A stretch of 50,702 bases of DNA from the UHGV virus genome UHGV-0140686. One strand, written 5' to 3'. Position numbers: made by a program. The first letter of the stretch is position 1. Each line of letters starts with the position of its first letter. Of this stretch, positions 6,001-9,000 are shown in pieces. Source of the stretch: a virus.

Positions 6001-9000
6001 CTGAGACATAGAAATTCCTTATTAACTGATGAGCGAAGTGGTATCAGTGAATTTGTTGGTGCGGATCACTGAGCCGCTTTAAGCTTTCCATCCACCGTGC
6101 CGGTGATGCCGAACAGCTGACCCTGATCTTCCTGCAGGATGGTGAGCTTGCCGCCTTTGTTGACCCACATAGGTGTTTCGGTGGTGTCCTCTTCGGACGC
6201 TTTGCCGCGTGGGGTAGGGGTGCTGTAATTCAGGCGATGCTTAATCTTGACGCGCTTCTCTTCAACGGAGTTGCCCATACGCTCAAAATCAAAGGTGAGG
6301 ACTACCTTGCCTTTATTGCCGTTGTTCAGAACGCCGAGCGCGGTGGTATTGAGAGCCGCCGCAATCTTATTCATGAACACGCCGGCATCGAGCTCGCCCA
6401 GGAAATCGGGCACGACTGTCATGCGATCATTACTCATGGTTTTTTACCCTCATGAAAGGCGGCTGCAACCGCCGGAATTTTCTCCATACACAACACAGAA
6501 GAGCATCTGCGGTTAGCAGCCGCCCGGGTGGATTGGGTTATGAGCCCGTCGCCCGGTGATGCTCTTTTGTCTTGTGTAAAAAGGGCGGTTACCCATCAGA
6601 ACGTTATCCTCTTCCTCCTTTGGGTAGTGGAAAACTGGATAACCGCCAAGACTACACACAGCACAGTTAACTAGGTTGTGGCGGTGGTGCCTCCACCTGC
6701 CGGGTTAAGCCATAACCGGAGGCGTACACTGCCCAGAAACGCATTCATTGAACGGTTTGGCTCGCTGGGTGCGCATAGCCGCAATTACCACAACGAAGAG
6801 GGCACTGCCGGTGTCCGAATCGAACGGACCTTTTCCCTGCCCATCACCAGATATCGAACTATCCTGGCGTCTGGAATCGAACCAGACTCTGTGCCTTGCT
6901 CGTCAGAGCCCTCATCGTTGTGCGCTGTGGTGGCGGGAGTCGAACCCGCATAACGTCCGGCCGGACCGCATGAGATAACCTGTGTTGCGAACATTGGTTA
7001 GTGCTCAACTCCCCATACGAGGGGCGCTCTATCCATTTGAGCTACACCACAACGGTAAGAGCACTGCCGCCACCCCTTGCGGGATAACCCGTCTGTCTGC
7101 CTGGCGGTAGGGCGTTTCCTGGCATCTTCAGTGCTCTTTCCTGTTGTGTCCCGAACGAACTCTTCCCGGGTGTCACACCTTTTCGCCGCGCTGGTGGGGC
7201 GCACGTCGTGCCTGAAACACTTAGCTTGCACATTTCCGGTTGTCCTGTGAGCGCATGGATAAAGGGAACTCTCAGGCCGCTGACGCTGCATGTGCCATAC
7301 AACGGTTGCGAATATTGCCGTTCACAACTGGAAGCGCACTCCTTCAGTGACAAACCAGTCCCCACGACCGATGGAAGATGGAATGCGCTTTCATGTTGGG
7401 TACGATTCATCTACCCCGGTCCGGCGGCGCCACCTCGCCGGGGCAGATGCAAAGGACCGTTACGCGATCATTCGGCTTGTTGGTATGGCCGGAAGTATCA
7501 AGTCCCGACATCGCGGATTCTGCTTCTCCGCCCCGATTTCACCCCCGCTATTGTTTAGCGCGCAAACCGAGAAAATCGCCTTCAACGCTGTCGGCTTTCG
7601 CCATGTTCGTTCAGGTATCTTCGGGCGGGGTGCTAAGGTGGTGATGAGCCCTTGTCCTTAACACTCCTACTGGTTTTCGGCATTCCTGGCTTGGGTATCG
7701 CCACCAGTTGTAGGAATTTTACTATGAGTTGCGGTTAATCAGGCCGCACCTCTGTTACCCCTCCCGAAGACACCTGCCACTTTATGTGCCTGCTTTTCAC
7801 CACATCAGGCGAGGTGGATCCTGGTTATTCCCCAACAACAAGGATTCGGTTAATCTGGATATCCCCAACAACGAAGAGGTGTTGCTATGAGTGTTATTAG
7901 CGAAGAATTTTTCCAGAAAATTCTTAATAATCTTTCCGAACTACACGGTATAGCAGTGTTTGGTTCAGTTACTGAACCCGGCTATTCCCAGGTCAAAAAT
8001 CGTGCTTCACTCGTATTTGCACTTGAAGTCCTACTTGAGCGACATCGTGAAAAACACGGAACCTTATGGAGCCCGTTACCCGGAAAACTCGCTTTGTTGC
8101 ACTTGATCCTTCAAAAGTACAAATGGCCATTATCTGAAATAAAGGCTTTGACCCTGCAGGAGTCCGTATTCCTCCTTCAGGAAGAATTAAAATTTGAAAA
8201 CCTTCCGGATCTGGCTCAACGTGTTCTCAAAAATTATTTAGCTGACCGAGCTGAACACTACTTCGCTGAAATACGAGAGGAAGAGTGGGATCCAGATCTG
8301 TATCTCACAATTCCAAAGCCGCAGCGATGGTGAGTTCGTCAATGAGTTGATCGACCACTTCGATTGACTGCTTAAGAGCTTCTCTTTCGGCGATTGCGGT
8401 TTTAAGCCGATGTGATGCACTAATTTTCCGTTCCATCCAGGAGATGACCTCTTCCTCGGTGCTGCTAGGAGCAATGATTTTTGGTTCAGTTGCCTTCATA
8501 AGGCCTCCATTCAGTTGGTTAACGTGTTGGGGCATCCAGATTGTTAAAGAGCTAAGCGTCCTACGGGGCGCTTTTTTCATACCTGCGAATCATCCCGGCC
8601 TTCGTATGCCCCGGGCGGCTACTTCGTGGGCGTCCTGCCTGTTCGCTGTTGATGGATTAATAATACAGATAAAACTGTTAATTCGTCAACAGTCAAAACT
8701 GTATTGAGTGGGGGTGTTTACTTGAAAAACTGTAATTTATTGTTTTTTATGAAACTAAAGACGTAAAAAAACCGGCGCTAGCCGGTTCATGTGAGGAAGG
8801 ATTTACCTTTTTCGCCTGTAAATTCTATGTTCGACCATTACGCCGATAATTTTCAACGGGCATTCAGAGCTATTGATGGTGGGGTAGTCGTCATTAAGGG
8901 GGACCAGTTCATATTGCTGGCGGCCTGAAATATCGGTAAATGTAGGACGGTACTTTTTAAAAGTTGCCTCATTATCACCATTTTTAGCAACAACAAACTC

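Follow-up and report, generated by a model that had tools for sequence, protein, structure and literature searches.

Why should a prophage carry two hairpins with the form of a transfer RNA (tRNA) T-arm at a place where no tRNA gene is recognised? The question is raised by the UHGV virus genome UHGV-0140686, a DNA stretch of 50,702 nucleotides (nt) that was analysed at its full length and is called the window from here on. Its minus strand reads TCTGG-TTCGATT-CCAGA from 6886 to 6870 (hairpin 1) and GTCCG-TTCGATT-CGGAC from 6829 to 6813 (hairpin 2). The initial annotation had placed two minus-strand hairpins at these very positions, 6870..6886 and 6813..6829, and had taken them for either tRNA 3'-end remnants of old integrations or deliberate mimics of the T-arm. 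Comparison with homologous loci reveals that both hairpins are arms, named P2 and P4, of a conserved 134-nt RNA domain built around a four-way junction (minus strand, 6922..6789). This domain is a real, conserved and apparently undescribed family of structured RNA, which forms part of an unrecognised modular array of non-coding RNA (ncRNA) in phages.

T-Arms Outside a tRNA

Each of the two hairpins has a perfect stem of 5 base pairs (bp), a G-C closing pair and a 7-nt loop, UUCGAUU, which matches the T-loop pattern of tRNAs (T54 Psi55 C56 R57 A58 N N). Everything that characterises the T-arm of a tRNA, namely the 5-bp stem, the G53-C61 closure and the T-Psi-C-R-A-N-N loop, is found in both. 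A third T-arm, GCGGG-TTCGACT-CCCGC (minus strand, 6949..6933), belongs to a tRNA-like module at 6925..7051, and the loop-to-loop distances among the three are 63 and 57 nt, in agreement with the spacing of about 57-65 nt first noticed. The word GTTCRANTC occurs 11 times in the 50.7-kilobase (kb) window, against 3.3 expected. With a strict definition of the T-arm (5/5 stem pairs and the loop TTCRANN), a scan of the window returns four hairpins: the one in the tRNA-Thr gene at 21532 and the three clustered T-arms, which confirms that each of the two hairpins under study fits the consensus. In 300 dinucleotide-preserving shuffles of the window the mean number of strict T-arms is 0.32 and the maximum 3. 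Given these counts, and since three of the four strict T-arms fall within 137 nt on one strand, an origin of the cluster by chance is excluded.

The hairpins are not the visible ends of overlooked tRNA genes. ARAGORN, run on the window, calls the tRNA-Thr at 21532 and nothing at the hairpins, while the Rfam tRNA model at E<=10 on 6300..7500 matches 6925..7051 only and neither hairpin of the 134-nt domain. A 7-bp acceptor stem contiguous with the T-stem, a discriminator base and a CCA are absent 3' of both. Hairpin 1 continues instead into a loop-closed helix (P3), and hairpin 2 is followed by ACCGG and then by a 19-bp stem. As the domain has neither D-arm nor anticodon arm and is recognised by neither of these tRNA finders, the features that define the cloverleaf fail, and the domain is not a tRNA. 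The earlier statement that neither hairpin has a matching acceptor strand nearby needs one correction. A partner helix exists for hairpin 2, since the 3' strand of the 19-bp stem (6807..6789, pairing with 6922..6904) begins 5 nt 3' of it, in a register that is not that of a tRNA.

A Conserved Four-Helix Junction

The complete domain with its two T-arms (minus strand, 6789..6922; domain 2 of the array) is a 134-nt four-helix junction, represented by a covariance model of 31 homologues. It is closed by P1, a stem of 19 bp in which the 5' strand CACAAC-GAUGAGGGCUCUG (in full CACAACGAUGAGGGCUCUG; 6904..6922) pairs with the 3' strand CAGUGCCCUCUUC-GUUGUG (in full CAGUGCCCUCUUCGUUGUG; 6789..6807). 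Within this stem the joining strand J1/2 (ACGAGCAAGGCACAGAG, 6887..6903) precedes P2, or T-arm 1 (UCUGG UUCGAUU CCAGA, 6870..6886), which is abutted without any linker by the variable hairpin P3 (6845..6869). A second joining strand, J3/4 (AUGGGCAGGGAAAAG, 6830..6844), precedes P4, or T-arm 2 (GUCCG UUCGAUU CGGAC, 6813..6829), and the linker J4/1 (ACCGG, 6808..6812) closes the circle. All three joining strands are purine-rich and near-invariant and all three have a GGCA, the third of which is made up by J4/1 together with the first two bases (CA) of the P1 3' strand; those of J1/2 and J3/4 precede T-arm 1 and T-arm 2, respectively, by 7-9 nt.

Homologues were collected with a pattern that describes the 3' half of the domain, with the stem positions left free, run on a viral contig collection. 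It matches at least 120 loci, with at least 83 unique sequences when the flanks are included and at least 75 unique domains. The first scan of the collection, with the 14-mer TGACGAGCAAGGCA, was rejected: the word was too short, and most of its at least 120 matches were due to chance. Alignment A1 comprises 31 diverse homologues, the window sequence among them.

The single-stranded parts are as well preserved as those that pair. The J1/2 word ACGAGCAAGGCA is near-invariant, also in the loci gathered by a pattern that does not contain J1/2. J3/4 is near-invariant as (A/U)UGGGCAGGGAAAAG, with U-GGCA---AAA-G invariant in A1, and is kept also in the loci found through J1/2 alone (part of J3/4 stood in the main collecting pattern). 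The ACCGG of J4/1 is identical in 31/31 sequences, although the collecting pattern also contained it; in the RNAalifold structure its CG is paired to that of J1/2. Both T-arm stems keep 5 bp throughout A1 and their loops follow UUCRAUU; in T-arm 1, which is absent from the main collecting pattern, the loop has this form in 26 of the 31 sequences. P3, on the contrary, varies in sequence and length. Its insertions and deletions are not multiples of three and the open reading frames (ORFs) that overlap the domain have no PHROG match, which argues against coding and suggests that the domain is non-coding.

Covariation, Folding and Strand

In the test of the four helices on A1, 90.2% of the cells pair, compared with 36-54% when the 3' partners are slid by 1-3 columns. 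Both sides have changed in 21 of the 38 pairs, and 0/500 column shuffles reach the observed values. The signal is distributed over all the helices: in P1, 95% of the cells are paired and 9/19 pairs have changed on both sides; in P3, this is the case for 6/9 pairs; and each T-arm has compensatory changes at three of its five pairs. For T-arm 1 these include CUGG/CCAG, CAGG/CCUG, ACGG/CCGU and UCGG/CCGA; T-arm 2, with 98.7% of its cells paired, is found as GUCCG/CGGAC, GUCUG/CAGAC, GUUCG/CGAAC, CUCCG/CGGAG and AUCCG/CGGAU. RNAalifold recovers P1, P2, P3 and P4 with no structure supplied. A second scan, which used the end of P1 and J1/2 only and no T-arm, led to T-arm 2 in every true domain it found, among them four beyond the reach of the first pattern. 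Tertiary contacts were sought in the mutual information of unpaired columns, but two sub-lineages dominate the signal and nothing usable emerged.

The covariance model R1, derived from the 31 homologues, scores the domain of the window at 137.1 bits (E=2e-35) over its full length, the window being part of the training set. The features of the R1 family (P1 with CACAAC.../...GUUGUG, J1/2 with ACGAGCAAGGCA, two T-arms, J3/4 with GGGCA...AAAAG and J4/1 with ACCGG) are all present in the window. The minimum free energy (MFE) fold of the window domain on the minus strand has -59.7 kcal/mol (z=-4.1), compared with -49.4 kcal/mol for the plus strand, and G-U pairs exceed A-C mismatches in A1 by 60 to 22. 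From this excess and from the more stable minus-strand fold, it follows that the domain is an RNA read from the minus strand.

Present Selection and the Question of tRNA Relics

The T-arm is the usual target of integration within tRNA genes, and the hairpins might accordingly be relics: fragments of host tRNA 3' ends left by integrations, or phage tRNA genes in decay with no present function. A few arrays contain a real tRNA-Arg(UCU), so that descent from tRNA genes is plausible; this, however, bears on the origin of the domain and not on its current nature. The position of the hairpins speaks against a scar, as the integrase gene is at 1..1185, 5.6 kb away, and they lie in the interior of the prophage with phage early genes on either side, not at one of its ends. 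A 96-nt query over both hairpins, searched at E<=10 in 5,426 E. coli genomes, has no tRNA feature under any match and matches only 79 homologous prophage copies, in a comparison that covers E. coli and that matches below about 20 nt escape. No acceptor strand or CCA comes after either hairpin, both stems have compensatory changes in 3/5 pairs, and the invariant loops and the joining strands, which are not those of a tRNA, are kept across at least 75 distinct sequences and at least 10 genera. The compensatory changes, together with the invariant non-tRNA joiners, therefore indicate present-day selection on the RNA fold, and that the hairpins are relics is scarcely credible.

Of the two origins proposed initially, the remnants of old integrations thus find no support, given the internal site, its place between cI and yfdPQR-like genes in most related loci, the lack of any tRNA gene match in the genomes compared and the compensatory changes of the stems. 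The idea of deliberate T-arm mimics gains it, as the conserved RNA domain, present in many phages, has both hairpins as constant components that covary. Loss of the hairpins from otherwise identical prophages, which the initial annotation had named as a sign against its proposal, is the opposite of what is found: every true copy of the domain retains them.

Occurrence and Exchange Among Phages

The domain is present in 79 of 5,426 complete E. coli genomes (1.5%), always in full length, once per genome, and never annotated. It is also present in 11 species-representative genomes of Enterobacterales (two further matches are due to chance), in the genera Brenneria, Yersinia, Citrobacter, Rouxiella, Buttiauxella, Ewingella, Erwinia, Izhakiella, Edwardsiella and Symbiopectobacterium, as well as in Stx2a-converting phages, epsilon15-like Salmonella phages and an Edwardsiella phage. 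Its surroundings are highly variable: 61 distinct combinations of flanks were recorded, with at least 26 downstream and at least 31 upstream classes of neighbour, all of them joined exactly at the ends of P1. The modules are also found apart from each other, domain 2 in Stx2a_1447 and SPN9TCW, the following module (module 3) in Klebsiella phage LASTA, and the tRNA-like module in Cronobacter phage JK004. To judge from these junctions, domain 2 behaves as an exchangeable cassette in a modular array.

Such behaviour could also suggest an element that acts at the level of DNA, in which the 19-bp inverted repeat CACAAC.../...GTTGTG would mark a mobile or recombining cassette, in the manner of a miniature inverted-repeat transposable element or a recombinase site, with the hairpins as incidental contents. 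The many flanks, the junctions placed exactly at the repeat ends and the independent assortment of the modules among phages would all fit. Nevertheless, the tolerance of G-U over A-C (60 vs 22) is a strand-specific property of RNA, and the interior helices and single-stranded joiners are kept with the same orientation towards the transcription around them; the domain has no linked transposase or recombinase, and recombination at shared short words explains the shuffling equally well. This explanation is consequently regarded as very improbable.

The Array and Its Modules

The ORF-poor stretch 6438..7886 of the window, on the minus strand, is a chain of structured modules. In the direction of reading it contains a long-stem module (7399-7323), a conserved 5' domain (7304-7151) that directly precedes domain 2 in many phages, a domain 0 (7149-7047) with a long stem closed by CACAACAGGAAAGAGCACUG / CAGUGCUCUUACCGUUGUG, the tRNA-like module (7051-6925; Rfam tRNA, 39.8 bits), domain 2, module 3 (6794-6675) closed by GUUGUGG...CCACAAC, a long DicF-like hairpin with a U-run (6660-6578) which ends the array, and a further long-stem module (6576-6489). 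Domain 0 scores 34.5 bits with the model R1 through its homologous closing stem, and a direct repeat, D2, joins 6787-6810 and 7046-7069. The long-stem modules are closed by CAAC-NNN-RARRGC.../...GCYYUY-NNN-GUUG, whereas the tRNA-like modules share the acceptor words GUGGUG/CACCAC. The two kinds alternate, and relatives carry differing subsets joined exactly at the shared words; locus L124, for instance, is without the segments that correspond to 7782..7401 and 7143..6922 of the window.

The tRNA-like module has an acceptor stem, a D-arm, a T-arm and two extra arms, and no anticodon loop; the Rfam score is obtained with a 66-nt insertion and ARAGORN makes no call. In nine variants of its family the acceptor, D and T arms and the 'anticodon' stem covary, with a variable hexaloop of the UCUAU type (UCGUAU), or a UGAA or AGAA tetraloop, in the position of the anticodon loop. 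As the anticodon loop is replaced, this module is unable to decode. Domain 2 has tRNA-like modules as neighbours in the window, and likewise in loci L107, L170, L199 and L231. In Salmonella phage SPN9TCW and in locus L126 a genuine tRNA-Arg(UCU) comes directly downstream of it, and this tRNA starts inside the terminal GUUGUG of the P1 3' strand. Module 3 is 90% identical to a block of phage LASTA that is located immediately upstream of tRNA-Arg(tct).

The 5' domain, the most widespread block of the region, occurs in 31 phage records (two of them labelled as Stenotrophomonas phages), and most of the matches of the region in 389 E. coli genomes are due to it. No RNA gene is annotated there in any annotated phage record of the 31, and a hypothetical-protein coding sequence lies under the match in two. 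Its hairpin at 7304..7284 covaries (CGUUG/CAGCG vs CGGCA/UGCCG) around an invariant 11-nt loop, UAUGGCACAUG; the complementarity of this loop to AUGUGC, about 70 nt downstream, makes a pseudoknot possible.

Some further observations concern the borders of the array. The element that ends it (6578..6672) consists of a 64-nt hairpin and a U-run; its 5' part, UUGGCGGUUAUCCAGUUUU, resembles UUGGCGGUAUCAGUUUU of DicF, and its loop retains AGGAGGAAGAGGAUAAYGUUCUGA across phages. The similarity to the Rfam DicF family is weak (16.2 bits against a gathering score of 48). Its position in the early-left operon is the same as that of dicF in the Qin prophage; similar elements end the arrays of LASTA, SPN9TCW and L170. 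At the other border, direct repeats TCCCCAACAAC (plus strand; 7829-7844 and 7862-7877) occupy the gap before the opposite-strand ORF 7887..8333 and are followed by CCACCUCGCCUGAUGUGGUGAAAAGCAGGC, a possible small pseudoknot with CCAC/GUGG and a loop GCCUG pairing with CAGGC. In many related loci the array opens with this block of repeats and pseudoknot (7782..7877, minus strand), which may be the mark of a second promoter or of a transcript start. Finally, the 3' strands of the closing stems (7047..7066 and the P1 of many homologues) often read GCUCUUAC / UGCUCUUUA, the core of the lambda nutR/rrn boxA. They pair with a complementary 5' strand and covary with it, which could be either a coincidence or a masked site for Nus factors.

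Position in the Early-Left Operon

The locus usually has the order cII, cro (on the opposite strand), cI, array, and then genes for YfdP-, YfdQ- (DUF2303) and YfdR-like proteins, which start about 400 nt after the domain. In the window, the neighbours of the array are cI, proteins of PHROG 1744 and 5286, and YfdP/Q/R-like proteins. In temperate phages of Enterobacterales the array thus lies within the leader, not translated, of the early-left operon; some of these phages have it instead in a stand-alone unit, with promoter-like and terminator-like sites of its own. Downstream of cI (8803-9435) the minus strand of the window has a terminator-like site (8788-8769), a pL-like promoter (8689-8660, TTGACG-18-TATTAT) and a hairpin (8573-8554), and then a perfect rrn-type boxA, GCTCTTTAACAA (8552-8541), which is the sole exact copy in the window and lies about 110 nt downstream of the promoter. 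The arrangement of hairpin and boxA, with covariation of the hairpin, is found in 12 of the 120 related loci listed. A hairpin (boxB) followed by boxA is the order of rRNA operons, unlike that of the lambda nut sites. The same segment overlaps the first 27 codons of an ORF of 91 amino acids (8305..8580) whose PHROG match begins at residue 28.

These surroundings give rise to the main rival explanation, a purely cis-acting leader. According to it, the domain would compact the long untranslated early-left leader, exclude Rho and ribonucleases and set processing points for the yfdPQR mRNA, with the T-loops as generic bricks of tertiary structure, unconnected to tRNA biology. The conserved position between cI and the yfdPQR-like genes favours it, as do the great length of the leader and its poverty in ORFs. 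The perfect rrn-type boxA after a pL-like promoter and hairpin, which suggests that Nus factors protect a non-coding transcript, and the boxA-like word GCUCUUAC in many P1 3' strands point the same way. This operon, however, is not the only place of the domain. The epsilon15-like phages of Salmonella have it between the genes for terminase and portal, antisense to the structural genes. In locus L173 (1195..1610, minus strand of the locus) it belongs to a unit of about 400 nt outside the cI-yfdPQR context; there a promoter-like TTGACG-17-TATATT and a short leader precede the domain, and a tRNA-like module follows it, with a terminator-like hairpin and T-run at the end. Moreover, the geometry of the T-arms (5 bp, G-C closure, UUCRAUU) is far stricter than a generic stability element needs. 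A leader that acts in cis only is thus held to be rather unlikely.

Two features outside the array may be mentioned for their relation to RNA. The ORF 1435..2160 (minus strand, 241 amino acids) encodes an Rv2179c-like 3'-5' exoribonuclease domain (PF16473, 245 bits) and is located on the same strand as the array, between the array and int; judging by this assignment, the tRNA-like RNAs could have their 3' ends trimmed by such an RNase-T-like phage enzyme. On the plus strand, and unrelated to the array, a genuine tRNA-Thr(UGU) (21532..21607) and, 1 kb downstream, a full-length small RNA STnc100 (22545..22731, 72 bits) form a second group of RNA genes.

A Putative tRNA Mimic Released from the Array

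The function of the domain we infer from its form and its neighbours; it is most likely a stable tRNA-mimic RNA released by tRNA-processing enzymes. The chain would run from the P1 5' strand through the junction and J1/2 into P2, from there directly into P3, and then through J3/4, P4 and J4/1 back to P1. This strand order implies a topology in which both T-arms would point in the same direction, P2 and P4, with 5 bp each, leaving the junction the same way and holding their T-loops side by side. Stacked on P3, P2 would look like the 'top half' of a tRNA, made up of acceptor and T-arm, in which a loop seals the open end. The joining strands have in their GGCA the sequence of the tRNA D-loop segment G18 G19 N A21 and could cap the T-loops, which would create surfaces similar to the tRNA elbow. 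As for the release, the acceptor stems of the neighbouring tRNAs or tRNA-like modules have their own ends exactly at those of P1, so that tRNA enzymes would be expected to cut the array there: RNase P at the 3' border of the domain and tRNA 3'-end nucleases at its 5' border. The product would be a stable, blunt-ended RNA of about 135 nt with protected ends. Acting in trans as a mimic of the tRNA top half or elbow, it might engage or titrate a host factor that reads the T-arm, for which TrmA, TruB, RNase P and a tRNA-targeting defence nuclease are candidates, in the earliest lytic stage.

The best reading is therefore that of a trans-acting tRNA mimic, made at the start of lytic growth, that would engage a host factor which reads the T-arm. 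We infer this mechanism and give it an even chance; the choice of any particular target factor is far more doubtful. Several facts weigh against it. Neither hairpin is followed by CCA. The single-sequence MFE fold of the window copy swaps T-arm 1 for another pairing, so that T-arm 1 rests on the comparative evidence. The aligned sequences are related, hence the column-shuffle control overstates the significance of the covariation, a weakness of which the slid-partner control is free; and the T-arm 2 loop and parts of J3/4 and J4/1 stood in the main collecting pattern. A true tRNA lies within 1.2 kb in only 4/122 loci, many neighbouring modules are devoid of a T-arm, so that 'tRNA punctuation' may not hold in all cases, and no protein partner is consistently linked to the domain beyond the synteny cI ... 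yfdPQR.

The same two T-arms would also permit a different relation to tRNA, in which the domain is a receptor for the tRNA elbow: its T-loops would interdigitate into a flat platform that docks the adjacent tRNA-Arg, the tRNA-like module or host tRNAs, with the purpose of guiding folding and processing or of capturing tRNA. Two canonical T-loops on stems of equal length at the same junction, and the frequent presence of a tRNA or tRNA-like module immediately beside them, fit such a receptor. Double T-loop platforms that read the tRNA elbow are established for T-box Stem I, the RNase P specificity domain and the ribosomal L1 stalk (PMC4810234, PMC4919913). The known platforms, however, combine a bulge and a distal loop in one helix and not two hairpin loops, and most arrays have no tRNA-like neighbour that bears a T-arm. 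We consider the receptor improbable.

Returning to the trans-acting mimic, a generalisation to the whole array can be envisaged, although it is more likely wrong than right and is put forward tentatively. Such loci would be 'tRNA-punctuated' ncRNA arrays, sets of exchangeable cassettes in which long-stem domains, domain 2 among them, take turns with tRNA-like modules devoid of an anticodon. Being transcribed first after induction, they would be cut by the tRNA-processing enzymes of the host into stable mimics or binders of the tRNA elbow that disarm or hijack the readers of tRNA shape.

Comparison with Known RNAs

The domain belongs to no Rfam 15 family. Searches at the gathering threshold over the whole window, and at E<=10 over 6300..7500, returned only the tRNA-like module, tRNA-Thr, STnc100 and noise, and within 6300..7500 no family except tRNA comes near its gathering score. 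The likeness to tRNA lies in the arms (5-bp stem, G-C closure, 7-nt UUCRAUU loop) and, at the level of the top half, in the 3' strand of T-arm 1, which runs unbroken into P3 as the T-stem does into the acceptor. The differences are the lack of a cloverleaf, of an anticodon arm and of CCA, the closure of the T-arm 1 'acceptor' by a loop and the separation of T-arm 2 from the 19-bp stem by ACCGG.

In its presumed way of working the domain comes closest to tRNA-mimic RNAs of the kind of YrlA. A long closing stem and, within it, a canonical T-arm followed by a loop-closed acceptor-like helix, with no anticodon, are also characteristic of YrlA, a non-coding RNA which is likewise found in phages; its gene adjoins rsr (Ro60), and it has a helix that binds Ro. 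YrlA has been described as a bacterial Y-RNA-like RNA with a tRNA-like domain (Chen et al. 2014, PMC4201824). The resemblance of the domain to it is one of secondary structure only: a T-arm passes into a loop-closed helix (P2 to P3), and a long stem closes the whole. The domain has two T-arms and no D-arm, and its neighbours are cI and yfdPQR-like genes instead of rsr; neither a linkage to rsr nor a match to the YrlA family model was found at the array.

Other phage RNAs are comparable in their arrangement or biogenesis. The T4 species 1 and 2 RNAs are stable non-tRNA RNAs, co-transcribed with phage tRNAs and released by tRNA-processing enzymes. They resemble the present case in the alternation of tRNAs with small structured phage RNAs in arrays, but they are RNAs of a virulent phage with no detectable sequence similarity, and most arrays here are without a true tRNA. 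The C4 RNA of P1/P7 and the CI RNA of P4 (Rfam C4) are immunity RNAs that RNase P cuts from early-operon leaders, and they act by pairing with repeated targets in the same leader. The common trait would be a small RNA obtained from the early leader of a temperate phage by a tRNA-processing enzyme, the cut being predicted here; for the conserved joining strands, no complementary site with <=3 mismatches exists in the window, and there is no match to Rfam C4. GOLLD and ROOL are large phage-associated structured ncRNAs found in prophages, often adjoining tRNA genes (PMC5737381). The domain resembles them as a structured ncRNA in prophages near tRNAs; each of them, however, is one large RNA, from Gram-positive and other lineages, whereas the modules described here are small, exchangeable, confined to Enterobacterales and without Rfam match.

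Three candidates were rejected. For the put RNA of HK022, blastn of the window segment 6440..8700 against HK022 21000..33500 gave only chance-level matches (E>=1). The M3 RNA of phi80 is a classical substrate of RNase P; it is annotated as an oop homologue beside cII in an N-type phage, and is set apart by genomic context only. A hammerhead ribozyme, suggested by CUGACGAG...GAAA, was dismissed by eye, as the stems are unfit for the hammerhead core. A search of the literature, including exact sequence words, found no description of the domain. It is not covered in the Pas sRNA (small RNA) preprint, in the catalogues of candidate structured RNAs (from viruses and phages, and the 224 bacterial motifs) or in the preprint on intergenic features.

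Implications

Mimicry of tRNA by RNA is known from plant RNA viruses, transfer-messenger RNA, Y-like RNAs and mascRNA. As far as the literature search shows, what is new here is a compact module that presents two canonical T-arms, as well as an array in which such modules are shuffled, placed right at the beginning of the early-left operon of lambdoid phages. The element is common, being present in 1.5% of complete E. coli genomes and also in Shiga-toxin phages, and it is unannotated everywhere. If the domain acted in cis only, it would still illustrate the means by which a phage can protect and process a kilobase of early RNA that is not translated, perhaps with the participation of an rrn-type boxA. 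If, on the other hand, the arrays are 'tRNA-punctuated', their products might hit, for example, tRNA-targeting anti-phage nucleases; and should the released RNAs indeed engage host tRNA enzymes or tRNA-directed defences, they would represent a new class of RNA-based phage counter-measures.

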